This document shows positions 1 to 52,934 of a DNA stretch of 64,000 nucleotides, piece by piece. Below the pieces are notes generated by a model, which saw nothing but the letters and a program-made list of their open reading frames with translations, was not told the DNA's origin and did not search any database. Origin of the DNA: Candidatus Altimarinota bacterium (GTDB lineage Bacteria; Patescibacteriota; Gracilibacteria; BD1-5; UBA6164). The stretch covers positions 12,909 to 76,908 of the forward strand of contig JANJUN010000023.1 of assembly GCA_024710565.1 (NCBI GenBank), written 5' to 3'. Positions within the stretch are counted from its first letter, which is position 1, and each line of letters begins with the position of its first letter. The translations under genes were made by a program, and so were the position numbers.

Positions 1-1163
1 AGTGAGAGATAATCGTGAGTTTTTTTGATAACTTTCCTCTTCAAACCAATCAAATGACTTTTTATAATCTCAATACTCAGGCTTCGACTCCTTTTGATAG
101 CGTAGTATTAACTTCAAAAATTCAAAACTACCCATTTGATTTATATGACAAGAAGTTTCAATGTGTCATAGATAGTGATGGGGATGAGATTTCAGATGAG
201 CAGGAAGCAATCCATAAAACTGATGTATTTTCTCTTGATACAGATGGGGATTTTTATACAGATTATGAAGAAATTTTTAATTCATGGAATCCTTTGGATA
301 ACAATTATTGACCCAATCAAGAACCAAGGACACAAATGCCAAATGATATAGTAAAAAAAGCACAAGAAAATATAAAGACAAAACAATATTGTGATACAAA
401 GATTTCACTTTCGACAAAAGTTTCAAAAGATACGGGACTTCTTACCTCTGGATTTTGAAATGAATACTTTGTTGTTACTATGAAAAAAATATCCAATTAT
501 ATCAATCAGGTTTCTTCTGAAAATCTTTGGTATATTTTACTCGTGGTTATCGGACTTTGATATATTCATGCTCTTGGGCCGGGGCATTCAAAAAGTTTAC
601 TTATTTCCTATATTTTAGATAAAAATAAAAGTTTTTTTGATGGATTATTGTATGCTATGATCTTTACTGTGACGCATCTTCTTGATATTATAGTGTTATT
701 TTTGCTTACTAAAGTCATTTTTAATTTTTATGATGTATCAAATTATATGCTTTATATTCAGAGATTTTCACTTCTGATACTTTTATTTTTCAGTATCTAT
801 TTGATGAGGAAATCATATAAAATGATAAAAAATCCATCGGTTTGAATTGGTTCTGCGTGTGAGAATAAAAAAGATATCAAAGGAACTCTTTTAGTTTGAT
901 TTATTGCTGGATTGGCTCCGTGTACATTTTGATGGAGTATCTTCTTATTACTTTTTTCTACTGGAAATTTGAGACTCATTATTCCTATGATTTTAGCTTT
1001 ATGAATAGGAATATTCTTGTGTCTTTTGAGTATTTTAATTTTTAGTTTTTTCTTAAGAAGAAAAATTTTTGAAAAAATAAAATTATTTTCTGAATATTCA
1101 TGACTTTTTTCCAGTAGTATTTTGTTTCTTTTAAGCATATATTTATTTTTCCAATTATACTAA
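1..1163 (+). CDS. NicO/RcnA-like metal (Ni/Co) transporter fusion protein, 3' part; the 5' end lies outside the window (complete copy at 51408..52934)
   Basis: The ORF is open with TGA read as Gly (checked codon by codon) and ends with TAA at 1161..1163. It has acidic DSDGDEISDEQE and DTDGDFYTDYEE repeats. These are followed by HALGPGHSKSL and GLAPCTFGW motifs inside a multi-TM C-terminal half, as in NicO/UreH-type transporters. Confidence 0.7.
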
Positions 1164-1169
1164 AAAAAT

Positions 1170-1200
1170 AAAACCCCAAACAAAAATAGTTTGGGGTTTT
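1170..1200. terminator. Bidirectional rho-independent terminator hairpin (mirror copy 51371..51401)
   Basis: aaaaccccaaac / gtttggggtttt stem with a 7-nt loop, flanked by A and T runs, between convergent genes. Confidence 0.8.
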
Positions 1201-1206
1201 ATGAAA

Positions 1207-2772
1207 TTATTCTTCTTCTACGCTTTTAATGATTTCTTTAAATCTAAAATATTCTGTGATCCTGAGTCCGCTAAATTTACCTATAAGAAAATTGATTGGG
1301 ATGAGTCAAAGCAGAATTTCAGGATAAGAAAGTAAGAAAACTTTTATTGCCGTGATATTGAAAATTCAGAAGGCAAATATAGGAATCAAAAGAGTATAAA
1401 AAAAGCTTTCCTTGTATTCTCATAAATCTTTCGAAGTAATGATGGTAATCATTTTTTCGCTTAAGAGAATAAAAACGATAAAGTAAAGAACATCTCACAT
1501 ATTGAGAGTGATGAGATTGAGCGAATACAGAATATTGATAATTCCAATAAAAAATATGATATTTATAGAAAGCAGAAATGCCATTCTTGGTGCGTATAAG
1601 AGATTGTATCTTTCAGTGATGAGAGAAAGAACTAAGTTGAGACAAACATATAATAAAATTAAACTTCATCAAAATACCAGTCCTAATTTAAAAAATAGTA
1701 ACGTAATAAATAAAGGAATCACTATTCCTATCGGAGAAAGTCCGATAAAGTGTTTAAAAATAATGATGATAGTTAGTACGATCGGAATGAGTAAAAAAAT
1801 ATAAATACTGTTGGTTGAGTATCAAACATTGGAAAGATTATTGATAAATTTTGATAAGAAAAAGATATTTTTTACATCATTTTGAGTAAGATCGATATTG
1901 AGAAAACTTTGTTTATTCGCCTCGAGTTCTGTAATAAGATCTCAAATCTGATTTTGTTTCAAAATTAAGTATTTAGAATTTTCTCACAGTAATATGATTT
2001 TATCAAGCCAAACTTTATTTGCTAAAAAGTTTTTTAAATAGCTTCATAAGATATTGAGATTGTAAGAAGAGAGTCAGACGATATTATAGGTTTCTCAGGA
2101 ATTGTTACTGGTAAGGTCTTTATTGATATTGGAGAGAATATTAAATACAAAATCTCTTGAACCCCAAACGATGATAAAATCTGATTTAAATCAGAGCGTT
2201 TGTTTGTAATCCTTTATATTATTCACAATGCTGGAAATTTCAATATCTGTTTTATTGAGAGGTCAAATAGTGTTTACATACACTCCATCTTTTTTAGAAA
2301 ATTCAATGTAGTTATTGATATCACTCGAAAGAATTTCATCAGAGTAAATCAGAAGAAATGATTTTTCATAGACTAAAATATTATAGGTATTATGAAACAG
2401 TATCTTTTGTTCACTTGCTTCATCTTCGCTTTTAGTCGTTTCAAAAATATTCAGTTCGAGTTCTTTTTCTCATTTTTCACTAAAAACCCTCATAAATACA
2501 GGACCATTTTGAGTAGAAGCTCATTTCAAATTCCATTCAAAAATGAAAGATTTTTCTCAGTAGAGATTTTCAAGTTTTTCTTTAATATTTGAGATGTCAA
2601 TAACATATTCATTGTTGATATTGATCTCTTTGGAAATAAGCTTATTTATTTCCTCAGATATATCAAAAGATGTTTCTAGGGAAGAATTTTCATAGGATTC
2701 TTGAATATTTCCACTTGCAAAGCTGTTGAGTGTGAGCGATATTAAAAGAATGCAAAGAAGTAATTTTTTCAT
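1207..2772 (-). CDS. Secreted/membrane protein: signal peptide plus a C-terminal domain of about 7 TM helices (possibly the 7TM domain usually fused to inactive transglutaminases)
   Basis: 521-codon ORF free of TAA/TAG, verified codon by codon on the mirror copy 49799..51364. N-terminus is MKKLLLCILLISLTLNSFA. The hydrophobic C-terminal 230 aa end in GKFSGLRITEYFRFKEI. The family assignment is from memory only. Confidence 0.6.
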
Positions 2773-2773
2773 A

Positions 2774-4243
2774 TTATTTTCTATTAAGAATTATTCAAAA
2801 GGTTTTTAAAAAAATTTTTACATCTAAGAGAAAACTCCAGTTTTCTATATAGAATACATCGAGATTTACTTCGTCTTCAAATGTATTTTTTTCTCTTCCG
2901 TTTACTTGAGCGAGTCCTGTAATTCCAGGTTTAATCGTAAGTACTCTTTTTTGATGAAGAAGATAATTTTGAACTTCTCTTGGTTGATGTGGTCTTGGTC
3001 AAACGAGACTCATATTTCATAAAAAAACGTTGAAAAGCTGTGGTAGTTCATCAATAGAGTATTTTTCAATAAAGTTTCAAATTTTTGTTTTTCTTGGATC
3101 ATCTTTTATCTTATAGAGTGGACCATGTCTGGATGATTTTTCGGCTATAAGTTTTTTTTCAAAAGCAAGAGCTTCGTCTTTGTTATTATCGACTCCATAA
3201 CTTTCTTTGATACAATATTTCCATTTGAGGTATCTGAATTTATAGAGATTGAATTTTTTTCCGGTCTGTCCGACTCTGAGATTTTTATAAATGATAGGTC
3301 CATCGGGATCTTCCCATTTAATCAGTATTCCTACTATGATAAATAGAGGAAGGGAAATAATAATTCAGATGATACTTCCGATGAGATCAATTCACCTTTT
3401 TAGAACTCTTCACCAAGCTCAAAGGGCGGTATTTTTTATTTCTACTACTGGAATTTTATTTAAGAGGGACACGGTAGTATTGCTTTTAGTAACATCAAAA
3501 CTATTGGTAATATATCTATAGCGTATTCCGTATATTCTCGAAAAATCCCAAATTTGGTAGAGTTCATCACTATTAAAATCACTATCAATATAGAGAATTT
3601 CATCAATAGGATTTTTTTCTAAAATATCTCATATATGTTGTGCGTTTCATAAATAGGGAAGTTTTGCATTTGTTTTTGCTTTATTGATGTATCAGATGAT
3701 GTTATAAATATGGGCTTCTTGAATATCATCTAAAATATGGTGTATATTTTTTTCTCACTGAGAGGTTACTATCAGTATATTTCTTTTTGGAATATATCAG
3801 CTATCCAAAAGAAAATTTTGTATTTTATTGAGAATAATTCTTTCTGTAATAATTCAAAAAACACCAATAAGAGTGGTAAATAAAATAACGAGTCTTGGAA
3901 TTTCTACATTATAAAAAACTCATTTTCCAAAATAAACAAATACAGAGAAAAATAAAAAAAAGTAAATACTGTATAACAATATATCAAAAGTTTCCTTTAA
4001 TTTTGATGCTGTTATTTTGAGAGAATATAGTCCGTGAATAGAAAAAATAATCAAGTATAAAAAGGCTCCAAAAATCGCAAATTTGAGAAGGTATTCATTA
4101 TGAATAATTTGTATAGGGAGTTGTACTCATGGGACAAAGTCGTTTATTTCTCTGAGATCTCTCGCTATAAAAAAGCTCAAAAAGATGATAAGAAAATCCA
4201 GAGGTAATTTTAAAAGTGAAAAAATAATTTCATGTTTTTTCAT
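2774..4243 (-). CDS. Polyprenyl-phosphate sugar phosphotransferase (WbaP/EpsB-like, Bac_transf family)
   Basis: 489-aa ORF with N-terminal TM helices. The C-terminus carries GQTGKKFNLYKFRYL ... DELPQLFNVFLGNMSLVGPRPHQPREV ... KPGITGLAQVNGR, the bacterial sugar-transferase signature. Confidence 0.85.
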
Positions 4244-4423
4244 AGGGGATTTTAGAAAAAATAGAATTTTATAATGTGGGTATTGAATGGAATGTGTTTT
4301 CCAGTTCTTTTTTTATTTTATGTAATTTTTTATTATTGCAACTTCTTATTGATTTAAAATTTGATTTATGGAGAAAAAATATTATATTTCAAAATATATT
4401 TTATTTTTCGTTACTTGCTTTTT

Positions 4424-5398
4424 ATGAAACAAATTTTTCTTGTGTTATTTTCTGACTTTTCTTTGTTATACAGACACTTTCTTCATTGGAATATTTCAAA
4501 GATTTTAATTTCTCTCTTTAGTTTCCTTTTATGACTTCTTTTTGCTCTTCCGTTTTGAGGATTACTTTTCCTCCTACTTTTCATTGATCCTATCGATTGG
4601 CAGGATATTTTTTCTACGTATTATGCTACACAAACCATAGGGCTCTCTTTTTTAACAGCCATCAGTTCACATCTTTTTTATGTTATATTTGAAGTACTTC
4701 TTCTTGTATTGTGAGTATTGGCGTTTTGATTTTGAAGTAGTTATAAATTGGTGCTCATGGCAAAATTAAATTTGGATTACAAAGCAGGTACACCAACGGG
4801 GTTTTTTAAAAATCATTATTTTTCTTTTTTGAAAATATCAAAGACGATCTGAATTTTTTCGTGGATAGGAGTGGTGTTTCTGGCTTTATTTTTTCTCATC
4901 GTATGAATTTTTCTTGCCATTATTTTTTTCTATTGAGGGATTGAGGAGGCTTATGTTATAGCAACACAATCAGAAAGTGTAAGCGCACTTTCTTTAGCGG
5001 TTTTATCTGTAGTTATAGTTGGATTTTTGATATTTTTGTATTTGGCATATAGAATGAATTATTCATATATCATTATGTTAGATGAAAAAAACTACCCAGA
5101 AAGAAAATCAGCACTTTTTTATGTAAAAGAATCATTTAAAATTACTTCGGGAGTAAAAGTATTTTTCTTTTTCCTCGTAGCACTTGTATTTTCTATTTGT
5201 ATTGTTTTTCCAGTTGATTATATAGGGAAATATATAGAGGCGATGGAATATCCTTTGGTAGAAGCTCTTTTTTCTCTTATCATATTTTTGACTATGAACG
5301 GATTATTTGAGATGTTACTAGTGAGTACCTATTATAGTATTATGCAAAAAGATACTACACATGCCGATACTTCTGAGTCTATAGCAGAATGAGTTTAA
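4424..5398 (+). CDS. Multi-pass membrane protein, unknown function
   Basis: 324-codon ORF (TGA = Gly) translated directly. It has several hydrophobic helices. With code 25, TAA at 5396..5398 is the stop; the TGA at 5390 is read through. Confidence 0.55.
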
Positions 5399-5418
5399 TT
5401 GAATTATTTTAAAAAACA

Positions 5419-6234
5419 ATGAAAGTTTTAATATTTTGAGATATTTATGGAAGAGTAGGAAGAAATGCTTTTAAAAAGCATTTCTTGTCTTTAAAAGAAA
5501 AATATAATCCAGATTTTGTTTTGGTAAATCCTGAAAATATTTCTTCGGGAAGAGGTCCTATAGAAAAACATATGAAAGAACTAGATGCACTCTGAGGTAT
5601 AGATGTGTATACTTCTTGAAATCATATTTTTGATAACTATGATGATATTAAAAATTATTTAGAAAAACCTGACTCTAAACTCCTTCGTCCAGCAAATTAT
5701 TATGAATCAGAGCATCTATATATTCCAGGAAAAGGATATAAAATATTAGAAAAAAATGGTTTAAAACTTCTTGTTATCAATATTATGTCATCAGTATTTA
5801 TGAGAGATGAAGTCTATAATCCTTTTTTAAAAATGGATGAACTTTTAAAGACGATTGATACTTCTTGATTGAATGGAATTATTATCGATTTTCATAGGGA
5901 AACCACTTCAGAAATCTATGCAATGGGGATGTTTTTGGATGGAAAAATAAGTTTTCTTTACGGAACACACACTCACATCCAAACCAATGATGAGTTGATT
6001 TTACCGCAGGGAAGTGGACTTTTAACAGATGTATGAATGAGTGGACCGCTCTATAGTATTATATGAGCTGATTTTGAGGGAATAAAATCAAGATTTTTTG
6101 GGGGGATTTTAAAAGGGAAGATAGAACAGGCGCTCGATCCAAATTATGTGGTAAGTGGCTGTGTTGTTGAAATAGATGAAAAAACAAAAAAATGTTTACA
6201 TATAGAAAAAATTAGAATAAAGGGGAAATTATAG
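5419..6234 (+). CDS. ymdB: YmdB-family metallophosphoesterase (2',3'-cyclic-nucleotide 2'-phosphodiesterase, TIGR00282-like)
   Basis: MKVLIFGDIYGRVGR ... NPENISSGRG ... YTSGNHIFD ... GTHTHIQTND ... DVGMSGP. The conserved GD and GNH glycines are TGA codons (5437..5439, 5617..5619). Verified codon by codon; TAG at 6232..6234. Confidence 0.88.
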
Positions 6235-6246
6235 TAAGAAAAATAA

Positions 6247-6275
6247 AAAAATAGAAACTTTTAGTTTCTATTTTT
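6247..6275. terminator. Bidirectional terminator hairpin (mirror 46296..46324)
   Basis: aaaaatagaaact ttt agtttctattttt. It overlaps the stop codon of the convergent minus-strand gene. Confidence 0.7.
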
Positions 6276-6642
6276 CATCTTTTAAGCGTTTTAAATCTTC
6301 TAGGTTTCATTTTTTTATTCTTAAAAGTTTCATTTTTTGAGTAAGAAGTTTTGTTTTGAGTTTTATTCTTGGAATATCTTCTTCAAAAGTAGTTTGCGCG
6401 AGATTTTCTCATTTTTTTAATTCACTGTAGGTTTCATAAAATCAGGTAAATGCTTCTCCGATACTTTTTGAAAGTCAGATTCCTGTATAGTGGAGTACTT
6501 TTTTCCCAAGTTTTTCTTTGCTTACATCTTTTTGGTCGTTTGATTTTTCTTGTAATTTTTTTGTTGTATATAAAACGGTATCATCTAAATATGCTTGAAA
6601 ATAAGCATATTTTTCTCATAAATATCTAAAAGGATTCTTCAT
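6268..6642 (-). CDS. Hypothetical protein (124 aa)
   Basis: ORF MKNPFRYLGEKYAYFQAYLDD...KRLKDEK, read on the mirror copy 45929..46303. It is bounded by a terminator, and I recognised no family. Confidence 0.5.
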
Positions 6643-6741
6643 ATAAAAAAGTAAATATAAAAATATTGAGGATATTATATTTATTATTTACTTTTTTCAA
6701 ATTTTATTATTATAGAGAAAACTTAGTATTAATTTCTTTTT

Positions 6742-7110
6742 ATGACCAAAAAACTTTTTTTACTCATCATATTGTGTATTTTTTTGTTAAGTACTACGAC
6801 ATTATTTTTTATTTTTCATTATTTAGATCCTTATAGAAATGAATTTGTTTCGGTTGTTACATTAGGAGTTTCAGTTTTACTATGTATTACTTCTTTTGTC
6901 AGTATGCTTTTGTATCTTTTTAAAAAAGTTCATTATAGAGGAGAAGTATTTTTATCACATATTTTTTCCAGTTTACGACAAGCATTTTTAGTCGCTCTTT
7001 TTGTTATTGGAGTGGTTTTATTTAAAATTATTGGAGTATTTTCTATTGCGACAGTAGGGCTTTTTATTTTGATTCTTATTTTTATCGAAATGATGTTTCA
7101 AAATTTTTAA
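6742..7110 (+). CDS. Small integral membrane protein (122 aa, about 4 TM helices)
   Basis: Intact ORF in the track with no TGA. It is strongly hydrophobic (MTKKLFLLIILCIFLL...). Confidence 0.6.
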   Translation: MTKKLFLLIILCIFLLSTTTLFFIFHYLDPYRNEFVSVVTLGVSVLLCITSFVSMLLYLFKKVHYRGEVFLSHIFSSLRQAFLVALFVIGVVLFKIIGVFSIATVGLFILILIFIEMMFQNF

Positions 7111-7139
7111 ATAAAATAACAGAACGTCAAGAGGTTTTT

Positions 7140-7168
7140 TTGATTTTCTTATCTTTATGTGATATAAT
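7140..7168 (+). promoter_or_regulatory. Sigma70-type promoter of the M23 peptidase gene (mirror 45403..45431)
   Basis: TTGATT (7140..7145), a 17-nt spacer ending in TGA (extended -10), and TATAAT (7163..7168); this sits 40 nt upstream of the ATG at 7208. Confidence 0.5.
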
Positions 7169-7207
7169 TTTTTTGTCTCTACTATTTAAAAAAGAAAAAT
7201 AAAATTT

Positions 7208-9253
7208 ATGAACGCAATACAAAAAATACTTACTACTTTCCTTCTTTTTATCTTTACTCAATCTCTATTTGTACAAACATATGCAAATTCACTTATCTAC
7301 TCAAAACAAGTGAGAGGAAAAATCATGGAAAACTTTAAACAAGAACAGTTTAATAATATTTATAATAATCAAAATGGACTTTTAAAAGAGGATGTGAATT
7401 TTTTTGAAACTCAAAATAAAATCATGATGTTTGAAACTATCAGAGATAATAATAAAGAACAAAAAGAAGAACTCGATATTCAAAGACAGGTTATTTCAGA
7501 TAGAGTAACGAATTTAGAAGATGCTATTGCTCTTATAGATGCGGATATTGAAAAAACAAAACAAGAGATTTTATCCTTAAGTCGTAATATCGTTGCATTA
7601 TACTCAGAAATAGCGAGTACAAAACAAGAGATAGATGTAAAAAATAAAGAAATATATGAATCAAGAAAGATTCTTTTGGATTATATTGCACATATTTATA
7701 AAAAACAAAATGTACTCTATTCAGGAGAATATAAAGATATTGACTCACTTAAAACGGTGTTATTGTCAGATGGAAGCTTGGGAGATATTCTTTCAGAACT
7801 TCATTTTACTTCGGTACTTGAAATAACTGGACAATCTTTAGTGGAACAATATAGAAAATTAGTAAAAGAATTATTTGTAAAAAAACTTGATTTAGAAAAA
7901 AAGAATAAAAATGTAAAACTCTCAAAAACTCAAGAATTGATAAAGAAAAAATCTCTTCAGGAAAAAAAAGAATTTAGAGAAAAAATCCTTGATTATACAA
8001 AAGGACAAGAAGAACTTTTTACTCAATATGTAAAAGAAAAAATTAAAGTAGATACGACTCTTAAAATAAAAATTATTCAAAATAAGGTAAAATTAAAAGA
8101 TCAAAAATCCGAATTGTTAGCGAAATATAACTGTGATTATTTAGATGAAAAATTATTCTCAGATGATGTCTATTTAATAGATATTGATGATAAATCAAAA
8201 AAAGATTGTATGGAACTCAATAAGATTTTAACATTAGAATCACAACTCAAACCATTTTCACAAAATAAACAAAATGTGTTTTTATGGCCTATACAACCAG
8301 AAAAATGAATAAGTGCGTATTATAAAGATCCATCATACTTAGACGCTGTTTGAGCAAGTCATGATGCGATTGATATTATTGCTCCACAGGCAACTGATAT
8401 TATTGCACCAGCAGATGGATACATAACTTATGTAAAAGAACCAACAGATGAGGGGTATGCCTATGTAGTACTAAAACATGCAAATGGATTTGTGAGTGTC
8501 TATGGACATATCAATGAGGTATTATTTACACAATATGATTTTATTAAAGCAGGAACCGTTTTTGCTCGTAGTTGAGGAGAAGTTGGAACCAATGGGGCTG
8601 GACTTATGACCACTGGACCACATCTTCATTTTGAAGTATTTAAAGATAGAGAATATGTTGATCCACTCAATTATTTAGATCTTACAGTATTATCAGAAGA
8701 TAAAGTTCCACCAGTTCAAAAATATGCATATAAATATGTAAATGACTATAAAGAAAGACACGGAGAAGAATATACTGGAGATTTACTCAAAAATATAGTG
8801 GTATTTAAATTAGAAGGAGAAAATGAGATAGAGAGACAAAAAGATTTACTTGCAAAATATGCAACGAGTGAATTTAATAATTGGGATATGTGGGTAGAGG
8901 AAGCAGTTGATGGAAATATTGATCCAAGTTTCCTTATGTGTATTGGACTTGCTGAGAGTGGACTTGGAAAAAATTTAAAAACATCGTATAATGTTTGAAA
9001 TATTGGGAATACAGATAGTTGAGGAACCTGGGAATTCCCAAATGCAAGAAGCTGAGTATACCGGATGACAAAAACTTTAAATAATCAATTTTTATGAGAT
9101 TATAAAGAAATGAGTAAATTATCAAGATATGGAAATAAAACCGGATCGATTTACGCGTCATCTCCAATCAATTGGCATAATAATATGGTAAAATGTTTAC
9201 AAGCTCTGAAAGCAGAACATATTCCAGATAATTTTAACTTTAGACTACAATAA
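7208..9253 (+). CDS. M23-family metallopeptidase with signal peptide, long N-terminal coiled coil (EnvC-like) and an extra C-terminal glucosaminidase/muramidase-like region
   Basis: 681-aa ORF verified codon by codon. M23 motifs are HDAIDIIAP ... GFVSVYGHI ... GEVGTNGAGLMTTGPHLHFEV. The C-terminal CIGLAESGLGKNLKTSYNVGNIGN resembles the FlgJ-type glucosaminidase motif. TAA at 9251..9253. Confidence 0.85.
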
Positions 9254-9256
9254 TTT

Positions 9257-10189
9257 ATGTATTACTTTTTAATAATTTTATTTTCTAGTGTATTGTCTGA
9301 TTGAGTATTCGCTTCGAATACTCAATCAAATGATGCTGGAATTTCACATGGGGTGAGTTTTTTATCAAAAATACTTTCTACTGACGCATTAGTAAATTTT
9401 GCTTTTGGTATTCTTGTACTGATAGCAACTTTTTTAGTTTCAAAGATACTTTCTGGAAAACTCGAATCCTATTATACTTCTTATAATAAAGATGGAGATC
9501 AAACAAAGGAATGACTGTATGGGGTAATTAGTAGAAGTATAAATATCACGGTATGGTTTTTATGAATTACGTTGATGTTTGGGGTAATGGGATTAAATGT
9601 GGGATTATTTTTATGATGAATCGGTTTTTGAATCTGATTTACTATGCAAATATTTCTTTCTAATTTTATCTATTGAATTGTTATGGTTACACAAGGAACC
9701 GTAAGAAATGGAGATTTGATAGAACTGAATGGAGAGGTTTCAAAGGTTGAAAAAGTAAATCCACTTTTTACTGAAGTAAAAAAACTCAATGGAGTGAAGA
9801 GTTTTATACCAAATATTAAATTTTTACAAGACTCATTTTCTAACTTATATATCAATGAAAGCAGAAGATTTGAAGTAGAATTTACCCTTGATTACACAGC
9901 CGATATTCCAAAAGCAAAACTCATTATTGATAAAGTAATAGGAAGTGTTCCTGGAATAATAGAAAAACCAGAACATAAAATATGGCTTACAGGATTAAGT
10001 GAAAATGGGGTGGTTGTAAAAGTACTTTTCCGGATGAAATCAAGAGATAAGGTATTTACGATTCGTTCTAATGTGATAGAAACTCTTAATTTAGCATTTA
10101 AACAAGCATGAATATTAGTCGCATTTAACCAAATGACTTTTGTGCAAAGAGATGATATTCAGAGTGATAAATATAAAGCAACCAAATAA
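9257..10189 (+). CDS. Mechanosensitive ion channel family protein (MscS-like)
   Basis: 310-aa ORF verified codon by codon. It has TM helices with GLFLGGIGFGIGFTMQ, followed by a beta-domain (GDLIELNGEVSKVEKVNPLFTEVK). It starts 4 nt after the M23 stop. Confidence 0.82.
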
Positions 10190-10229
10190 AAAACATATTT
10201 CTTTAGAAATATGTTTTTTATTTGGTTGC
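10178..10229. terminator. Long perfect hairpin terminator (24-bp arms, 4-nt loop) overlapping the MscS stop codon (mirror 42342..42393)
   Basis: gcaaccaaataaaaaacatatttc ttta gaaatatgttttttatttggttgc, read directly. Confidence 0.8.
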
Positions 10230-10247
10230 TTATTTAAAAGTATCTAA

Positions 10248-10294
10248 TTTTTATAGTAAAAAATATTTGATTTTTATAGTAAAAACTCTATAAT
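10248..10294 (+). promoter_or_regulatory. Promoter with two 15-bp direct repeats (operator-like) upstream of the AbiEi-like gene (mirror 42277..42323)
   Basis: tttttatagtaaaaa occurs at 10248..10262 and 10271..10285, 23 bp apart start to start. TTGATT is at 10267..10272, then a 16-nt spacer, then TATAAT at 10289..10294. The second repeat fills the spacer. Confidence 0.45.
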
Positions 10295-10336
10295 TATTAT
10301 AGAATGATTTTAGCTTAAAAATAACAAAATATAACT

Positions 10337-11116
10337 ATGATAACTTTTGACAAAATTGTTAATAAACTGTTAAAAAAATGATGAAAAGTAATTTTTAAAG
10401 ATGATATTTTTGAAATTATTGACCCAGAAAAAAAGCCTGAATATATGACTTTAGTCAATAAAACTATCTACCTTTTAAAGTCTAAAAATGTCATAAAAAC
10501 GATTCGTAATGGAGTCTATATTATACCAGATAGATTTGATGAAAAATTAAATGAAATCGACCTGATAGAAAAGTATTATTTTGCCTTTGTGAAAAAGTAC
10601 ATAGCTGAAAATGTTGGAAGTGAATATTTTATTTCTGGGAAAAAATCTCTTGAAATACACTTAAAAAATTTTTCTATTCCAGAAAAAATTATTATCGTCA
10701 ATAGAAAAATAAATAAAAAAGTGATGATATGAAATTACCAAATCATTTTTAAAACCATTTCTGCGTGAAAAGTGAATCTCTTTCAAAAGCTCTCAAAATT
10801 GACGAAATCCGTAGCAATAGAATCTACCACATTTAAGATATCTGCTTTAGAATTGGCTTTGGTAGAAACGGCACTTATCTCAGATAGTATGGAGGGGATA
10901 GATATAGAACTGCTTTCTAAGGCAATTAAAAAATATGGAAAATTCTTTCAAACTGAGCACTTTTATATTATTGGAGAACTTAAATATGGTATGGCGTTTA
11001 ATCGTCTCAAGGAAATTTCAAAACATATTGATACAAAATTATACGAAATATTTTTAGATATTATCAAGAAAAATGGAGGTCTTTTTATAGGGGAAGGTTT
11101 GAGGAAGGTGATTTAA
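10337..11116 (+). CDS. wHTH protein resembling AbiEi-type (type IV TA antitoxin-like) transcriptional regulators; no cognate toxin adjacent
   Basis: 259-aa ORF joining two track ORFs through two TGA codons. The N-terminal pattern ...LLKSKNVIKTIRNGVYIIPD matches the AbiEi_4 (l.rv.rGvY) style. Assignment is from memory. Confidence 0.45.
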
Positions 11117-12498: not shown

Positions 12499-12515
12499 TA
12501 TTTCACGATAAAAAT

Positions 12516-16823: not shown

Positions 16824-16825
16824 TA

Positions 16826-42234: not shown

Positions 42235-42381
42235 AGTTATATTTTGTTATTTTTAAGCTAAAATCATTCTATAATAATTATAGAGTTTTTACTATAAAAA
42301 TCAAATATTTTTTACTATAAAAATTAGATACTTTTAAATAAGCAACCAAATAAAAAACATATTTCTAAAGAAATATGTTTT

Positions 42382-43314
42382 TTATTTGGTTGCTTTATAT
42401 TTATCACTCTGAATATCATCTCTTTGCACAAAAGTCATTTGGTTAAATGCGACTAATATTCATGCTTGTTTAAATGCTAAATTAAGAGTTTCTATCACAT
42501 TAGAACGAATCGTAAATACCTTATCTCTTGATTTCATCCGGAAAAGTACTTTTACAACCACCCCATTTTCACTTAATCCTGTAAGCCATATTTTATGTTC
42601 TGGTTTTTCTATTATTCCAGGAACACTTCCTATTACTTTATCAATAATGAGTTTTGCTTTTGGAATATCGGCTGTGTAATCAAGGGTAAATTCTACTTCA
42701 AATCTTCTGCTTTCATTGATATATAAGTTAGAAAATGAGTCTTGTAAAAATTTAATATTTGGTATAAAACTCTTCACTCCATTGAGTTTTTTTACTTCAG
42801 TAAAAAGTGGATTTACTTTTTCAACCTTTGAAACCTCTCCATTCAGTTCTATCAAATCTCCATTTCTTACGGTTCCTTGTGTAACCATAACAATTCAATA
42901 GATAAAATTAGAAAGAAATATTTGCATAGTAAATCAGATTCAAAAACCGATTCATCATAAAAATAATCCCACATTTAATCCCATTACCCCAAACATCAAC
43001 GTAATTCATAAAAACCATACCGTGATATTTATACTTCTACTAATTACCCCATACAGTCATTCCTTTGTTTGATCTCCATCTTTATTATAAGAAGTATAAT
43101 AGGATTCGAGTTTTCCAGAAAGTATCTTTGAAACTAAAAAAGTTGCTATCAGTACAAGAATACCAAAAGCAAAATTTACTAATGCGTCAGTAGAAAGTAT
43201 TTTTGATAAAAAACTCACCCCATGTGAAATTCCAGCATCATTTGATTGAGTATTCGAAGCGAATACTCAATCAGACAATACACTAGAAAATAAAATTATT
43301 AAAAAGTAATACAT
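42382..43314 (-). CDS. MscS-like mechanosensitive channel (mirror copy)
   Basis: Mirror of 9257..10189. Confidence 0.82.
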
Positions 43315-43317
43315 AAA

Positions 43318-45363
43318 TTATTGTAGTCTAAAGTTAAAATTATCTGGAATATGTTCTGCTTTCAGAGCTTGTAAACATTTTACCATATTATTATGCCAAT
43401 TGATTGGAGATGACGCGTAAATCGATCCGGTTTTATTTCCATATCTTGATAATTTACTCATTTCTTTATAATCTCATAAAAATTGATTATTTAAAGTTTT
43501 TGTCATCCGGTATACTCAGCTTCTTGCATTTGGGAATTCCCAGGTTCCTCAACTATCTGTATTCCCAATATTTCAAACATTATACGATGTTTTTAAATTT
43601 TTTCCAAGTCCACTCTCAGCAAGTCCAATACACATAAGGAAACTTGGATCAATATTTCCATCAACTGCTTCCTCTACCCACATATCCCAATTATTAAATT
43701 CACTCGTTGCATATTTTGCAAGTAAATCTTTTTGTCTCTCTATCTCATTTTCTCCTTCTAATTTAAATACCACTATATTTTTGAGTAAATCTCCAGTATA
43801 TTCTTCTCCGTGTCTTTCTTTATAGTCATTTACATATTTATATGCATATTTTTGAACTGGTGGAACTTTATCTTCTGATAATACTGTAAGATCTAAATAA
43901 TTGAGTGGATCAACATATTCTCTATCTTTAAATACTTCAAAATGAAGATGTGGTCCAGTGGTCATAAGTCCAGCCCCATTGGTTCCAACTTCTCCTCAAC
44001 TACGAGCAAAAACGGTTCCTGCTTTAATAAAATCATATTGTGTAAATAATACCTCATTGATATGTCCATAGACACTCACAAATCCATTTGCATGTTTTAG
44101 TACTACATAGGCATACCCCTCATCTGTTGGTTCTTTTACATAAGTTATGTATCCATCTGCTGGTGCAATAATATCAGTTGCCTGTGGAGCAATAATATCA
44201 ATCGCATCATGACTTGCTCAAACAGCGTCTAAGTATGATGGATCTTTATAATACGCACTTATTCATTTTTCTGGTTGTATAGGCCATAAAAACACATTTT
44301 GTTTATTTTGTGAAAATGGTTTGAGTTGTGATTCTAATGTTAAAATCTTATTGAGTTCCATACAATCTTTTTTTGATTTATCATCAATATCTATTAAATA
44401 GACATCATCTGAGAATAATTTTTCATCTAAATAATCACAGTTATATTTCGCTAACAATTCGGATTTTTGATCTTTTAATTTTACCTTATTTTGAATAATT
44501 TTTATTTTAAGAGTCGTATCTACTTTAATTTTTTCTTTTACATATTGAGTAAAAAGTTCTTCTTGTCCTTTTGTATAATCAAGGATTTTTTCTCTAAATT
44601 CTTTTTTTTCCTGAAGAGATTTTTTCTTTATCAATTCTTGAGTTTTTGAGAGTTTTACATTTTTATTCTTTTTTTCTAAATCAAGTTTTTTTACAAATAA
44701 TTCTTTTACTAATTTTCTATATTGTTCCACTAAAGATTGTCCAGTTATTTCAAGTACCGAAGTAAAATGAAGTTCTGAAAGAATATCTCCCAAGCTTCCA
44801 TCTGACAATAACACCGTTTTAAGTGAGTCAATATCTTTATATTCTCCTGAATAGAGTACATTTTGTTTTTTATAAATATGTGCAATATAATCCAAAAGAA
44901 TCTTTCTTGATTCATATATTTCTTTATTTTTTACATCTATCTCTTGTTTTGTACTCGCTATTTCTGAGTATAATGCAACGATATTACGACTTAAGGATAA
45001 AATCTCTTGTTTTGTTTTTTCAATATCCGCATCTATAAGAGCAATAGCATCTTCTAAATTCGTTACTCTATCTGAAATAACCTGTCTTTGAATATCGAGT
45101 TCTTCTTTTTGTTCTTTATTATTATCTCTGATAGTTTCAAACATCATGATTTTATTTTGAGTTTCAAAAAAATTCACATCCTCTTTTAAAAGTCCATTTT
45201 GATTATTATAAATATTATTAAACTGTTCTTGTTTAAAGTTTTCCATGATTTTTCCTCTCACTTGTTTTGAGTAGATAAGTGAATTTGCATATGTTTGTAC
45301 AAATAGAGATTGAGTAAAGATAAAAAGAAGGAAAGTAGTAAGTATTTTTTGTATTGCGTTCAT
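43318..45363 (-). CDS. M23 metallopeptidase with coiled coil and C-terminal muramidase-like region (mirror copy)
   Basis: Mirror of 7208..9253. Confidence 0.85.
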
Positions 45364-45460
45364 AAATTTTATTTTTCTTTTTTAAATAGTAGAGACAAAA
45401 AAATTATATCACATAAAGATAAGAAAATCAAAAAAACCTCTTGACGTTCTGTTATTTTAT

Positions 45461-45829
45461 TTAAAAATTTTGAAACATCATTTCGATAAAAATAAGAATC
45501 AAAATAAAAAGCCCTACTGTCGCAATAGAAAATACTCCAATAATTTTAAATAAAACCACTCCAATAACAAAAAGAGCGACTAAAAATGCTTGTCGTAAAC
45601 TGGAAAAAATATGTGATAAAAATACTTCTCCTCTATAATGAACTTTTTTAAAAAGATACAAAAGCATACTGACAAAAGAAGTAATACATAGTAAAACTGA
45701 AACTCCTAATGTAACAACCGAAACAAATTCATTTCTATAAGGATCTAAATAATGAAAAATAAAAAATAATGTCGTAGTACTTAACAAAAAAATACACAAT
45801 ATGATGAGTAAAAAAAGTTTTTTGGTCAT
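45461..45829 (-). CDS. Small integral membrane protein (mirror copy)
   Basis: Mirror of 6742..7110. Confidence 0.6.
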   Translation of the reverse strand: MTKKLFLLIILCIFLLSTTTLFFIFHYLDPYRNEFVSVVTLGVSVLLCITSFVSMLLYLFKKVHYRGEVFLSHIFSSLRQAFLVALFVIGVVLFKIIGVFSIATVGLFILILIFIEMMFQNF

Positions 45830-45928
45830 AAAAAGAAATTAATACTAAGTTTTCTCTATAATAATAAAATTTGAAAAAAGTAAATAATAAATATAATATC
45901 CTCAATATTTTTATATTTACTTTTTTAT

Positions 45929-46303
45929 ATGAAGAATCCTTTTAGATATTTATGAGAAAAATATGCTTATTTTCAAGCATATTTAGATGATACCGTTTTA
46001 TATACAACAAAAAAATTACAAGAAAAATCAAACGACCAAAAAGATGTAAGCAAAGAAAAACTTGGGAAAAAAGTACTCCACTATACAGGAATCTGACTTT
46101 CAAAAAGTATCGGAGAAGCATTTACCTGATTTTATGAAACCTACAGTGAATTAAAAAAATGAGAAAATCTCGCGCAAACTACTTTTGAAGAAGATATTCC
46201 AAGAATAAAACTCAAAACAAAACTTCTTACTCAAAAAATGAAACTTTTAAGAATAAAAAAATGAAACCTAGAAGATTTAAAACGCTTAAAAGATGAAAAA
46301 TAG
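45929..46303 (+). CDS. Hypothetical protein, 124 aa (mirror copy)
   Basis: Mirror of 6268..6642; translated directly from this strand. TAG at 46301..46303. Confidence 0.5.
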
Positions 46304-46336
46304 AAACTAAAAGTTTCTATTTTTTTATTTTTCTTA

Positions 46337-47152
46337 CTATAATTTCCCCTTTATTCTAATTTTTTCTATATGTAAACATTTTTTTGTTTTTTCATCTATT
46401 TCAACAACACAGCCACTTACCACATAATTTGGATCGAGCGCCTGTTCTATCTTCCCTTTTAAAATCCCCCCAAAAAATCTTGATTTTATTCCCTCAAAAT
46501 CAGCTCATATAATACTATAGAGCGGTCCACTCATTCATACATCTGTTAAAAGTCCACTTCCCTGCGGTAAAATCAACTCATCATTGGTTTGGATGTGAGT
46601 GTGTGTTCCGTAAAGAAAACTTATTTTTCCATCCAAAAACATCCCCATTGCATAGATTTCTGAAGTGGTTTCCCTATGAAAATCGATAATAATTCCATTC
46701 AATCAAGAAGTATCAATCGTCTTTAAAAGTTCATCCATTTTTAAAAAAGGATTATAGACTTCATCTCTCATAAATACTGATGACATAATATTGATAACAA
46801 GAAGTTTTAAACCATTTTTTTCTAATATTTTATATCCTTTTCCTGGAATATATAGATGCTCTGATTCATAATAATTTGCTGGACGAAGGAGTTTAGAGTC
46901 AGGTTTTTCTAAATAATTTTTAATATCATCATAGTTATCAAAAATATGATTTCAAGAAGTATACACATCTATACCTCAGAGTGCATCTAGTTCTTTCATA
47001 TGTTTTTCTATAGGACCTCTTCCCGAAGAAATATTTTCAGGATTTACCAAAACAAAATCTGGATTATATTTTTCTTTTAAAGACAAGAAATGCTTTTTAA
47101 AAGCATTTCTTCCTACTCTTCCATAAATATCTCAAAATATTAAAACTTTCAT
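46337..47152 (-). CDS. ymdB: YmdB-family metallophosphoesterase (mirror copy)
   Basis: Mirror of 5419..6234. Confidence 0.88.
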
Positions 47153-47172
47153 TGTTTTTTAAAATAATTCAA

Positions 47173-48147
47173 TTAAACTCATTCTGCTATAGACTCAGAA
47201 GTATCGGCATGTGTAGTATCTTTTTGCATAATACTATAATAGGTACTCACTAGTAACATCTCAAATAATCCGTTCATAGTCAAAAATATGATAAGAGAAA
47301 AAAGAGCTTCTACCAAAGGATATTCCATCGCCTCTATATATTTCCCTATATAATCAACTGGAAAAACAATACAAATAGAAAATACAAGTGCTACGAGGAA
47401 AAAGAAAAATACTTTTACTCCCGAAGTAATTTTAAATGATTCTTTTACATAAAAAAGTGCTGATTTTCTTTCTGGGTAGTTTTTTTCATCTAACATAATG
47501 ATATATGAATAATTCATTCTATATGCCAAATACAAAAATATCAAAAATCCAACTATAACTACAGATAAAACCGCTAAAGAAAGTGCGCTTACACTTTCTG
47601 ATTGTGTTGCTATAACATAAGCCTCCTCAATCCCTCAATAGAAAAAAATAATGGCAAGAAAAATTCATACGATGAGAAAAAATAAAGCCAGAAACACCAC
47701 TCCTATCCACGAAAAAATTCAGATCGTCTTTGATATTTTCAAAAAAGAAAAATAATGATTTTTAAAAAACCCCGTTGGTGTACCTGCTTTGTAATCCAAA
47801 TTTAATTTTGCCATGAGCACCAATTTATAACTACTTCAAAATCAAAACGCCAATACTCACAATACAAGAAGAAGTACTTCAAATATAACATAAAAAAGAT
47901 GTGAACTGATGGCTGTTAAAAAAGAGAGCCCTATGGTTTGTGTAGCATAATACGTAGAAAAAATATCCTGCCAATCGATAGGATCAATGAAAAGTAGGAG
48001 GAAAAGTAATCCTCAAAACGGAAGAGCAAAAAGAAGTCATAAAAGGAAACTAAAGAGAGAAATTAAAATCTTTGAAATATTCCAATGAAGAAAGTGTCTG
48101 TATAACAAAGAAAAGTCAGAAAATAACACAAGAAAAATTTGTTTCAT
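47173..48147 (-). CDS. Multi-pass membrane protein (mirror copy)
   Basis: Mirror of 4424..5398. Confidence 0.55.
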
Positions 48148-48327
48148 AAAAAGCAAGTAACGAAAAATAAAATATATTTTGAAATATAATATTTTTTCTC
48201 CATAAATCAAATTTTAAATCAATAAGAAGTTGCAATAATAAAAAATTACATAAAATAAAAAAAGAACTGGAAAACACATTCCATTCAATACCCACATTAT
48301 AAAATTCTATTTTTTCTAAAATCCCCT

Positions 48328-49797
48328 ATGAAAAAACATGAAATTATTTTTTCACTTTTAAAATTACCTCTGGATTTTCTTATCATCTTTTTGAGCTTTT
48401 TTATAGCGAGAGATCTCAGAGAAATAAACGACTTTGTCCCATGAGTACAACTCCCTATACAAATTATTCATAATGAATACCTTCTCAAATTTGCGATTTT
48501 TGGAGCCTTTTTATACTTGATTATTTTTTCTATTCACGGACTATATTCTCTCAAAATAACAGCATCAAAATTAAAGGAAACTTTTGATATATTGTTATAC
48601 AGTATTTACTTTTTTTTATTTTTCTCTGTATTTGTTTATTTTGGAAAATGAGTTTTTTATAATGTAGAAATTCCAAGACTCGTTATTTTATTTACCACTC
48701 TTATTGGTGTTTTTTGAATTATTACAGAAAGAATTATTCTCAATAAAATACAAAATTTTCTTTTGGATAGCTGATATATTCCAAAAAGAAATATACTGAT
48801 AGTAACCTCTCAGTGAGAAAAAAATATACACCATATTTTAGATGATATTCAAGAAGCCCATATTTATAACATCATCTGATACATCAATAAAGCAAAAACA
48901 AATGCAAAACTTCCCTATTTATGAAACGCACAACATATATGAGATATTTTAGAAAAAAATCCTATTGATGAAATTCTCTATATTGATAGTGATTTTAATA
49001 GTGATGAACTCTACCAAATTTGGGATTTTTCGAGAATATACGGAATACGCTATAGATATATTACCAATAGTTTTGATGTTACTAAAAGCAATACTACCGT
49101 GTCCCTCTTAAATAAAATTCCAGTAGTAGAAATAAAAAATACCGCCCTTTGAGCTTGGTGAAGAGTTCTAAAAAGGTGAATTGATCTCATCGGAAGTATC
49201 ATCTGAATTATTATTTCCCTTCCTCTATTTATCATAGTAGGAATACTGATTAAATGGGAAGATCCCGATGGACCTATCATTTATAAAAATCTCAGAGTCG
49301 GACAGACCGGAAAAAAATTCAATCTCTATAAATTCAGATACCTCAAATGGAAATATTGTATCAAAGAAAGTTATGGAGTCGATAATAACAAAGACGAAGC
49401 TCTTGCTTTTGAAAAAAAACTTATAGCCGAAAAATCATCCAGACATGGTCCACTCTATAAGATAAAAGATGATCCAAGAAAAACAAAAATTTGAAACTTT
49501 ATTGAAAAATACTCTATTGATGAACTACCACAGCTTTTCAACGTTTTTTTATGAAATATGAGTCTCGTTTGACCAAGACCACATCAACCAAGAGAAGTTC
49601 AAAATTATCTTCTTCATCAAAAAAGAGTACTTACGATTAAACCTGGAATTACAGGACTCGCTCAAGTAAACGGAAGAGAAAAAAATACATTTGAAGACGA
49701 AGTAAATCTCGATGTATTCTATATAGAAAACTGGAGTTTTCTCTTAGATGTAAAAATTTTTTTAAAAACCTTTTGAATAATTCTTAATAGAAAATAA
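48328..49797 (+). CDS. Polyprenyl-phosphate sugar phosphotransferase, WbaP-like (mirror copy)
   Basis: Mirror of 2774..4243; translated codon by codon on this strand. TAA at 49795..49797. Confidence 0.85.
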
Positions 49798-49798
49798 T

Positions 49799-51364
49799 AT
49801 GAAAAAATTACTTCTTTGCATTCTTTTAATATCGCTCACACTCAACAGCTTTGCAAGTGGAAATATTCAAGAATCCTATGAAAATTCTTCCCTAGAAACA
49901 TCTTTTGATATATCTGAGGAAATAAATAAGCTTATTTCCAAAGAGATCAATATCAACAATGAATATGTTATTGACATCTCAAATATTAAAGAAAAACTTG
50001 AAAATCTCTACTGAGAAAAATCTTTCATTTTTGAATGGAATTTGAAATGAGCTTCTACTCAAAATGGTCCTGTATTTATGAGGGTTTTTAGTGAAAAATG
50101 AGAAAAAGAACTCGAACTGAATATTTTTGAAACGACTAAAAGCGAAGATGAAGCAAGTGAACAAAAGATACTGTTTCATAATACCTATAATATTTTAGTC
50201 TATGAAAAATCATTTCTTCTGATTTACTCTGATGAAATTCTTTCGAGTGATATCAATAACTACATTGAATTTTCTAAAAAAGATGGAGTGTATGTAAACA
50301 CTATTTGACCTCTCAATAAAACAGATATTGAAATTTCCAGCATTGTGAATAATATAAAGGATTACAAACAAACGCTCTGATTTAAATCAGATTTTATCAT
50401 CGTTTGGGGTTCAAGAGATTTTGTATTTAATATTCTCTCCAATATCAATAAAGACCTTACCAGTAACAATTCCTGAGAAACCTATAATATCGTCTGACTC
50501 TCTTCTTACAATCTCAATATCTTATGAAGCTATTTAAAAAACTTTTTAGCAAATAAAGTTTGGCTTGATAAAATCATATTACTGTGAGAAAATTCTAAAT
50601 ACTTAATTTTGAAACAAAATCAGATTTGAGATCTTATTACAGAACTCGAGGCGAATAAACAAAGTTTTCTCAATATCGATCTTACTCAAAATGATGTAAA
50701 AAATATCTTTTTCTTATCAAAATTTATCAATAATCTTTCCAATGTTTGATACTCAACCAACAGTATTTATATTTTTTTACTCATTCCGATCGTACTAACT
50801 ATCATCATTATTTTTAAACACTTTATCGGACTTTCTCCGATAGGAATAGTGATTCCTTTATTTATTACGTTACTATTTTTTAAATTAGGACTGGTATTTT
50901 GATGAAGTTTAATTTTATTATATGTTTGTCTCAACTTAGTTCTTTCTCTCATCACTGAAAGATACAATCTCTTATACGCACCAAGAATGGCATTTCTGCT
51001 TTCTATAAATATCATATTTTTTATTGGAATTATCAATATTCTGTATTCGCTCAATCTCATCACTCTCAATATGTGAGATGTTCTTTACTTTATCGTTTTT
51101 ATTCTCTTAAGCGAAAAAATGATTACCATCATTACTTCGAAAGATTTATGAGAATACAAGGAAAGCTTTTTTTATACTCTTTTGATTCCTATATTTGCCT
51201 TCTGAATTTTCAATATCACGGCAATAAAAGTTTTCTTACTTTCTTATCCTGAAATTCTGCTTTGACTCATCCCAATCAATTTTCTTATAGGTAAATTTAG
51301 CGGACTCAGGATCACAGAATATTTTAGATTTAAAGAAATCATTAAAAGCGTAGAAGAAGAATAA
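49799..51364 (+). CDS. Signal-peptide protein with C-terminal 7TM-like domain (mirror copy)
   Basis: Mirror of 1207..2772; translated codon by codon on this strand. TAA at 51362..51364. It starts 1 nt after the sugar-transferase stop. Confidence 0.6.
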
Positions 51365-51407
51365 TTTCATAAAACCCCAAACTATTTTTGTTTGGGGTTT
51401 TATTTTT

Positions 51408-52934
51408 TTAGTATAATTGGAAAAATAAATATATGCTTAAAAGAAACAAAATACTACTGGAAAAAAGTCATGAATATTCAGAAAATAATTTTATTTTTTC
51501 AAAAATTTTTCTTCTTAAGAAAAAACTAAAAATTAAAATACTCAAAAGACACAAGAATATTCCTATTCATAAAGCTAAAATCATAGGAATAATGAGTCTC
51601 AAATTTCCAGTAGAAAAAAGTAATAAGAAGATACTCCATCAAAATGTACACGGAGCCAATCCAGCAATAAATCAAACTAAAAGAGTTCCTTTGATATCTT
51701 TTTTATTCTCACACGCAGAACCAATTCAAACCGATGGATTTTTTATCATTTTATATGATTTCCTCATCAAATAGATACTGAAAAATAAAAGTATCAGAAG
51801 TGAAAATCTCTGAATATAAAGCATATAATTTGATACATCATAAAAATTAAAAATGACTTTAGTAAGCAAAAATAACACTATAATATCAAGAAGATGCGTC
51901 ACAGTAAAGATCATAGCATACAATAATCCATCAAAAAAACTTTTATTTTTATCTAAAATATAGGAAATAAGTAAACTTTTTGAATGCCCCGGCCCAAGAG
52001 CATGAATATATCAAAGTCCGATAACCACGAGTAAAATATACCAAAGATTTTCAGAAGAAACCTGATTGATATAATTGGATATTTTTTTCATAGTAACAAC
52101 AAAGTATTCATTTCAAAATCCAGAGGTAAGAAGTCCCGTATCTTTTGAAACTTTTGTCGAAAGTGAAATCTTTGTATCACAATATTGTTTTGTCTTTATA
52201 TTTTCTTGTGCTTTTTTTACTATATCATTTGGCATTTGTGTCCTTGGTTCTTGATTGGGTCAATAATTGTTATCCAAAGGATTCCATGAATTAAAAATTT
52301 CTTCATAATCTGTATAAAAATCCCCATCTGTATCAAGAGAAAATACATCAGTTTTATGGATTGCTTCCTGCTCATCTGAAATCTCATCCCCATCACTATC
52401 TATGACACATTGAAACTTCTTGTCATATAAATCAAATGGGTAGTTTTGAATTTTTGAAGTTAATACTACGCTATCAAAAGGAGTCGAAGCCTGAGTATTG
52501 AGATTATAAAAAGTCATTTGATTGGTTTGAAGAGGAAAGTTATCAAAAAAACTCACGATTATCTCTCACTCAGAAATCTCTTTTTCGCACTCAAAACTAT
52601 AGTTTATCTCAATTCCTGTTGATAAAATCTGATACTCTTCTAATTCCAATATTTCAAATTTTCCCATATTACAAGAATTTTGGGGAATATCGATCTGTAT
52701 ATTTTTGCGTACGTATTCTTGTATAATATCTTTATGATCATAATATTCATACACCGACTTAAAGGCAATATTTTTTGAATTGAGTAAATATTCTATCTCA
52801 TAAGAGTGAAAATACGTAGTTACATTTAAAAAATTTTTATGAAAGCTCAAAAAACTCGAAGAAATATCAAGAGGATGTGCAAAAGTTGCCTGAGTAAAAA
52901 AAAACAAAAGAAATAATAAAAAGATTTTTTTCAT
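51408..52934 (-). CDS. NicO/RcnA-like metal transporter fused to an N-terminal secreted domain with acidic Ca-binding-type repeats (complete copy, 508 aa)
   Basis: The ATG at 52934 and signal peptide MKKIFLLFLLFFFTQATFA lie outside the repeat. The ORF runs through the TGA at 52566..52568 into the repeated region. Motifs are as for 1..1163. Confidence 0.7.

Follow-up and report, generated by a model that had tools for sequence, protein, structure and literature searches.

Introduction

Contigs whose two halves mirror one another exactly have been described before. Inverted loops in an assembly graph yield palindromic unitigs, which SPAdes and MEGAHIT output in full, and unsafe unitigs arise under low or imperfect coverage (Rahman & Medvedev 2022, PMC9528984). 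Single-cell assemblies have yielded palindromic contigs with exactly mirrored halves, which were considered artefacts (bioRxiv 10.1101/2023.06.06.543983), and more than 85% of the chimeras formed in multiple displacement amplification (MDA) are inverted joins, primed at short complementary sequences (Lasken & Stockwell 2007, PMC1855051). The subject of this report is a palindrome of 2 x 26,285 nucleotides (nt), or longer, in a 64,000-nt stretch of contig JANJUN010000023.1 (positions 12,909 to 76,908 of the forward strand; assembly GCA_024710565.1). We call this whole stretch the window, and all positions below are window coordinates. The palindrome turns round at a short hairpin beside a peptidoglycan hydrolase gene of the LysM/CHAP type, and it is very probably a fold-back made in sequencing or assembly, not part of the organism's genome.

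With the known palindromic-contig artefacts this object shares exactly mirrored halves, the lack of a spacer, a natural palindrome on the scale of a k-mer at the turn, and a true continuation that is different. It departs from them in its unusual length, which is at least 52.6 kb and possibly that of a whole 78,386-nt contig, and in its nucleating palindrome, which can be placed to the base and is predicted to be a conserved terminator. The hairpin at the turn resembles bidirectional intrinsic (rho-independent) terminators in having an A-run, a stem and a T-run between convergent genes, and it is predicted to be capable of termination on both strands. Unlike the usual members of that class, it has a very A/T-rich stem and forms a spacer-less perfect palindrome of 38 nt that overlaps the stop codon of the downstream gene; the same form of terminator reaches 50 to 56 nt elsewhere in this genome and in sibling strains. 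The hairpin telomeres made by resolvases (ResT in Borrelia, TelN in phage N15, TelK in phiKO2, TelA in Agrobacterium) offer a single likeness, and a formal one, in that read-through of such an end gives a perfect palindrome. They differ from the present site, which is internal in the same and related strains, is terminator-like, has no resolvase encoded in the window, and shows unitig ends that do not fit a closed end.

Extent of the palindrome

By direct comparison, window positions 1..52570 are an exact reverse-complement palindrome, in which position x complements position 52571-x with 0 mismatches over 52,570 nt. The arms meet between 26285 and 26286 without a spacer, ...AAAAAAAATCGTAA on the left being followed directly by TTACGATTTTTTTT... 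on the right. A mirror of 52,570 nt cannot arise by chance. The window is divided as follows:

1..26285: left arm, exact reverse complement of 26286..52570
26286..52570: right arm, with unbroken continuation into 52571..64000
52571..64000: single-copy part within the window, encoding RsmI, a FapA-like protein, 2-oxoacid:ferredoxin oxidoreductase subunits and a PLD-like protein

No biological meaning attaches to the outer limit at 52570, which simply mirrors the first position of the window. An open reading frame (ORF) at 51408..52934 on the minus strand runs uninterrupted across the boundary between 52570 and 52571, and the palindrome may extend further left than the window edge. An earlier note on this DNA had described a spacer-less perfect palindrome of at least 2 x 26,285 bp with a left arm possibly longer than the window, and the mismatch count, the centre and the unbroken ORF agree with that description. 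Positions 52571..64000 are the ordinary chromosomal continuation of the right arm, and they too may be mirrored to the left of the window. The G+C content is 28%, and the GC skew flips sign at the centre because the sequence is mirrored there. The contig at NCBI that carries the exact window proteins has 78,386 nt, an even number equal to 2 x 39,193, and the whole contig may be one palindrome.

A natural palindrome at the centre

The gene beside the centre encodes a LysM + CHAP peptidoglycan hydrolase whose stop codon lies 26 nt before the centre. We refer to the flank that carries this gene as the A side, and to the flank that follows the hairpin in other contigs as the B side. The features at the centre are these:

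25138..26259, plus strand: LysM + CHAP peptidoglycan hydrolase gene (PF01476, PF05257) with 17 TGA codons read as Gly
26312..27433, minus strand: mirror copy of the LysM/CHAP gene
26267..26304: natural spacer-less perfect palindrome of 38 nt, GAAATAAAAAAAATCGTAA joined to TTACGATTTTTTTTATTTC, arm of 19 nt, reconstructed from the window and a B-side contig (L034, below)

Seven contigs from metagenome-assembled genomes (MAGs) of relatives were examined, namely L008, L009 (UBA7396, a 102.6-kb contig), L010, L011, L012, L013 and L026. Their CHAP proteins are 59 to 85% identical to that of the window in the best tblastn segment, where TGA is counted as a mismatch; the closest four (L008, L009, L010 and L026) are 83 to 89% identical by BLASTP under genetic code 25. 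The CHAP gene is internal to the contig in seven of the seven, and it is followed by an A-run/stem/T-run hairpin, a convergent gene for a secreted protein of 286 amino acids (C-terminus ...ISNAMKE/K) and a gene for a T2SSE-type ATPase. On the A side these contigs are syntenic with the window, and their B-side genes, for the 286-amino-acid protein and the T2SSE-type ATPase, do not occur in it.

The same transition is found much closer to the deposited strain. The exact CHAP protein of the window, in code-4 translation, is recorded both from NCBI and from Logan. One Logan contig (L035, from SRR19748632) matches window 23820..26296 with 100.000% identity and runs 11 nt beyond the centre before it stops. 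A second sample, SRR22388146, holds an A-side contig (L001) that is 97.5% identical to the window together with a B-side contig (L034) that carries the T2SSE and 286-amino-acid genes. L034 ends in ...GCTATGAAGAAATAAAAAAAATCGTAA followed by TTACGATTTT, which can also be given as ...GAAATAAAAAAAATCGTAA followed by TTACGATTTT, and it matches the window over 19 nt to the left of the centre and over the 10 nt to the right that are all the contig holds. The flanks of L034 and of the window part at position 20, which delimits the natural palindrome at 38 nt. When the A flank of the window is joined to the B flank of L034, the 38-nt palindrome is followed by TTCATAGC...; past 26304 the reconstructed natural sequence reads TTCATAGCATTTG..., the 3' end of the convergent 286-amino-acid gene, whereas the window reads AATATTT..., which mirrors its own A flank. 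The stop codon and the last codons of the 286-amino-acid gene lie inside the right arm of the 38-nt palindrome. NCBI also has another contig, of 26,927 nt and possibly from the same MAG, that encodes a near-identical B-side protein, P0170.

A sibling strain (L036), with a CHAP protein in the same 90% cluster and the same hairpin core as the window (TCGTAA joined to TTACGA), passes through the site. Its palindrome is broken by an asymmetry of A10 against T9, and the contig continues for 37 nt beyond the centre, reaching the 3' end of the B gene (ATTTCTTCATAGCATTTGATAT). The passage of L036 and of the seven MAG contigs through the orthologous hairpin into B genes, and the entry of B-side contigs into the same hairpin from the opposite side, argue against a hairpin telomere at this place.

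The centre hairpin has a stem of 17 bp, with A8 and T8 within it, a loop of 4 nt and a predicted free energy of -16.9 kcal/mol (z = -5.1). A hairpin lies between the CHAP and 286-amino-acid genes in nine of nine relatives, and in all ten orthologous intergenic regions z ranges from -2.3 to -8.1. The orthologous hairpins differ in stem sequence while the structure is kept, as would be expected if they are a conserved bidirectional intrinsic terminator, and from this comparison we predict that the 38-nt palindrome is such a terminator between convergent genes. A structure that is conserved while its sequence turns over, with the anatomy of an intrinsic terminator, again speaks against a telomere. 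A scan of IMG/VR with the centre sequence gave no match. Two metagenome matches to the hairpin core from the Joint Genome Institute (L028 and L029) were set aside as belonging to unrelated organisms with a similar terminator and as due to chance; by BLAST, L028 matches only the 26-nt hairpin of the window, and L029 returns nothing.

Contig ends as a test of the junction

Logan contigs are presumably built from a de Bruijn graph with k = 31, with which the fits of the contig ends are consistent. The place at which such a contig stops can be predicted. Where a natural palindrome of arm m has two different flanks, a flank unitig stops k-(m+1) nt past the centre; the unitig of a pure fold-back, or of a closed hairpin end, breaks off (k-1)/2 past the centre, that is, 15 nt at k = 31. 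In a k = 31 graph simulated from the actual sequences, the natural junction ended at +11, with the terminal sequence of L035, the fold-back by itself at +15, and the two mixed at +11. In the simulation the natural junction was ambiguous for k = 21 to 39 and was resolved from k = 41.

The rule holds in other cases. Contig L003 ends at +11, and the spanning contig L009, from a strain 99.6% identical to it, gives m = 19. The ends of L037 and L038 on the A side and of L031 and L032 on the B side are all at +4, and the value of m from their sequences is 26. L035 has its other end at window 23820, which is +5 past the centre of a second, 50-nt palindrome at 23800..23849 (m = 25), as predicted.

That L035 ends at +11 and not at +15 indicates that the SRR19748632 reads, an independent set with the identical strain, contain a junction from the palindrome to a different flank. 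In several strains the Logan contigs break off only a few nucleotides from the centre, as might be hoped for from a hairpin telomere. However, ends at +4, +5 and +11 fit short natural palindromes, while a closed end would give +15, and the identical strain gives +11.

Origin of the mirrored arms

The locus has the marks of a fold-back: base-identical arms without a spacer, a turn-round at a palindrome that is ambiguous for k, and a differing continuation in independent data. A single genomic segment underlies both arms, one of which duplicates it spuriously, and an identity of 100% between the arms is what is expected if one segment was emitted twice. On the real chromosome the LysM/CHAP gene would be followed by the 38-nt palindromic terminator, the convergent 286-amino-acid gene and the T2SSE-type ATPase gene. 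The halves of the palindrome would be the same k-mers on opposite strands and would share their graph nodes. Because of this sharing, a de Bruijn graph with k of 39 or less could not separate the true path, from A through the palindrome to B, from the false one, from A through the palindrome to the reverse complement of A. An assembler that took the false path would have run back along the segment it had just assembled, leaving identical arms and no spacer. The B side would then stand on a separate contig, for which the 26,927-nt contig with P0170 is the candidate, and this contig would end in ...ATGAAGAAATAAAAAAAATCGTAATTACGA.

A second route to the same artefact would be snap-back self-priming of a displaced 3' end at the hairpin, during whole-genome amplification or library construction, and the 38-nt perfect palindrome is an ideal snap-back primer. 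We favor mis-traversal of the graph, because it needs no chimeric molecule when k is 39 or less; which of the two routes acted is inferred. A fold-back chimera or artefact was also the preference of the earlier note, and it is borne out by the join to L034, by the +11 break of L035, and by the read-through in L036 and in the seven MAG contigs. Among the causes suggested there were MDA and a sequencing adapter; purely computational mis-traversal at a natural palindrome, which was not on that list, is at least as likely as either. The centre is not an arbitrary point of chimera formation but a natural palindromic terminator.

Several points weigh against a fold-back. It was deduced from sequence comparison and graph simulation and not from the reads of this contig itself. 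The +11 break of L035 would be the same if natural and fold-back molecules were mixed, so that it proves the presence of the natural junction in that read set and not the absence of fold-back molecules. A co-occurring strain with another A flank might in principle account for the branch at position 20, but the independent agreement with L034 makes this unlikely. L034 for its part stops at +10 and not at +11, from which it follows that the 97.5%-identical strain of that sample differs by 1 nt in its A flank. Finally, common short-read assemblers finish at a k of 55 or more. At such values a 38-nt palindrome should be resolved and an extra factor would be needed, possibly low coverage of the junction, chimeric reads or an error in repeat resolution.

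The structure could also be real. An inverted duplication in the population, or in part of it, might have begun with breakage close to the terminator hairpin, after which the strand snapped back on itself at the 38-nt palindrome and was copied by fill-in replication; snap-back at short inverted repeats is the mechanism at work in sbcCD mutants of Escherichia coli, in mre11/sae2 mutants of yeast and in the rDNA of Tetrahymena. The centre falls exactly on a natural perfect palindrome, where such events nucleate, the window encodes no SbcD partner for its SbcC-like protein, and a minority fold-back population is compatible with the +11 end, since the simulated mixture of natural and fold-back sequence yields it as well. 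Yet perfect identity over at least 52 kb would demand a very recent event and is expected of an artefact, and a palindrome of at least 52 kb should be unstable in a genome of about 1 Mb with a zinc-hook SbcC/Rad50-like ATPase. A duplication would have lost or separated the B side, yet B-side contigs with the same hairpin are present in the same read sets; all spanning contigs of relatives show the simple order from A to B, and exactly mirrored contigs are a recognised assembly artefact. We regard a real duplication as very unlikely, and nothing positive was found for the genuine palindromic amplification that the earlier note had listed as its third option, the spanning contigs of relatives running from A to B. 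Similarly slight is the probability that a sub-population with a giant inverted duplication formed in vivo, or with a hairpin-capped broken chromosome, exists beside the normal A-to-B arrangement. If true, this would be a palindrome-nucleated rearrangement of the chromosome in an uncultivated bacterium of the candidate phyla radiation rich in palindromic terminators of 38 to 56 nt.

That a linear replicon with a resolvase of the ResT/TelN/TelK type has its covalently closed hairpin telomere, or its replicated-telomere junction, between 26285 and 26286 is scarcely credible: reads rounding a hairpin end would indeed give a spacer-less perfect palindrome, but the locus is internal, not a physical replicon end, in relatives and in the sibling strain, the genes are core chromosomal ones (L21, EngB, HflX, RsmE, RsmI), Pfam scans of 30 window proteins (38 kb of unique sequence) found no telomere resolvase (ResT/TelN/TelK/TelA), those of the window proteins found no phage, plasmid or other linear-replicon genes, and the 3' end of the CHAP gene is joined to different downstream sequence, the very observation by which the earlier note had said that its telomere alternative would fall.

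Other palindromes of the lineage

The palindrome at the centre has counterparts elsewhere in the window:

28722..28771: second spacer-less perfect palindrome, 50 nt with arms of 25 (mirror copy 23800..23849)
42340..42395: palindrome of 27 + 2 + 27
62858..62900: palindrome of 19 + 5 + 19
40021..40059: palindrome of 17 + 5 + 17

The 50-nt palindrome at 28722..28771 lies between convergent genes, YgaP-like and EngB, and overlaps the 3' ends of both. Its two differing flanks are both within the window, so that it serves as an internal control for the unitig-break rule. Long A/T-rich hairpins of this palindromic, terminator-like kind recur in the lineage and persist despite the SbcC-like gene. They are likely to be hot spots for contig breaks and fold-back misassemblies. 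The statement of the earlier note that bacteria do not normally maintain long palindromes holds for the 52-kb object and does not extend to the common natural palindromes of 38 to 56 nt.

In sibling strains (L030, L031, L032, L037 and L038) the spacer between the CHAP stop codon and the hairpin, TATGAAGAAAT, mirrors the last four codons of the B gene (ATG AAG AAA TAA) exactly, and the perfect palindrome thereby reaches 50 to 52 nt, with arms of 25 to 26. The window spacer was also considered as a mirror of the B-gene end, and was rejected since the match stops at 19 nt; only the 38-nt palindrome is claimed. In these comparisons the palindrome seems to lengthen and to erode from one close strain to the next, and template switching at the hairpin may be the reason.

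Genes and genetic code

Under table 11, the standard bacterial code, the longest ORF in 38 kb has 366 amino acids. ORF calling with this table gave fragments only, and it was dropped after TGA was shown to be Gly; a look-up of the 366-amino-acid fragment gave no match, so that a table-11 annotation of the source is unsupported. When TGA counts as sense, the ORF coverage goes up from 0.37 to 1.42 and the genes form a map of normal density. The share of TGA among the codons reaches 4.5% in some genes, and GxxxxGKS P-loops are restored only when this codon is translated as Gly. In alignments with relatives, the TGA codons of the window correspond to Gly 100 times and to Trp 0 times, and the reverse comparison gave Gly 177 times and Trp 0 times. 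The codon alignments thus indicate that the genome uses genetic code 25, in which TGA is Gly. The homologs of the LysM protein beside the centre are named Candidatus Gracilibacteria, the group to which this MAG belongs. No tRNA-Gly(UCA) occurs in the window, where tRNA-Gln(TTG), present twice in mirror image, is the sole RNA gene.

With TGA as sense, each arm holds 22 complete genes of at least 60 amino acids, one gene cut by the boundary, and the tRNA. The earlier note had counted 27 genes per arm, and the difference consists of small ORFs; the mirror duplication itself stands, as do the two copies of the tRNA, the CHAP gene beside the centre (25138..26259) and the SbcC-like gene within the repeat (37341..39722), the last two by their Pfam matches. 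The gene content (L21, EngB, RsmE, HflX, YmdB, MscS, an M23 peptidase, a sugar transferase, RsmI and 2-oxoacid:ferredoxin oxidoreductase) is that of chromosomal housekeeping genes. Two features of the arms deserve separate mention:

24415..24489, plus strand: tRNA-Gln(TTG), with a mirror copy at 28082..28156 on the minus strand
37341..39722, minus strand: SbcC/Rad50-like SMC-type ATPase of 793 amino acids (SMC_N, AAA_23, AAA_15, AAA_29), with a mirror copy at 12849..15230 on the plus strand

The SbcC/Rad50-like ATPase has its SMC_N, AAA_23 and AAA_29 matches at the N terminus, a CPTC zinc-hook motif in the middle of the coiled coil and an LVLDE Walker B motif near the C terminus. No SbcD/Mre11 phosphoesterase gene adjoins it, its neighbors encoding a 183-amino-acid protein without a family and HflX, and the only Metallophos protein in the window is YmdB-like (46337..47152). 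An SbcD/Mre11 partner could be encoded elsewhere in the genome.

Three neighboring genes on the minus strand (32736..34115, 35748..36647 and 36701..37252) encode proteins that, judged by eye, apparently have about 130 N-terminal amino acids in common. The shared region has the motifs DKRxD ... Q/SxEK ... PEYxxxxxxAD and no Pfam match, and the product of 32736..34115, the longest of the three, also has a PG_binding_1 domain. These genes may form a lineage-specific paralogous family associated with the cell wall. Two further long ORFs on the plus strand, both open when TGA is read through, are probably spurious: 45952..46359 encodes a Lys/Arg-rich product of low complexity, and 27496..27846 is antisense to the genuine L21 gene, which occupies about 27505..27816 of the minus strand. 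In a genome this rich in A/T, uncritical ORF calling that treats TGA as sense predicts too many genes.

Implications for the deposited genome

At least 26 kb of the deposited MAG contig is spurious duplicated sequence, which inflates the genome size. The spurious arm makes the single-copy genes for L21, EngB, HflX and tRNA-Gln seem duplicated, estimates of duplication or contamination would rise, and the structure might pass for a telomere or an amplification. We recommend that one arm be removed, with the cut placed between 26304 and 26305 or, symmetrically, between 26266 and 26267. The analysis also provides a rule by which such artefacts can be spotted without reads, from a natural palindrome found at the corresponding center in relatives and from the positions at which unitigs stop at a known k. 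The 52.6-kb palindrome is not real biology. The real features of this genome are ordinary ones, genetic code 25 and long A/T-rich palindromic bidirectional terminators, and terminators in the form of long perfect palindromes appear to be a habit of the lineage.

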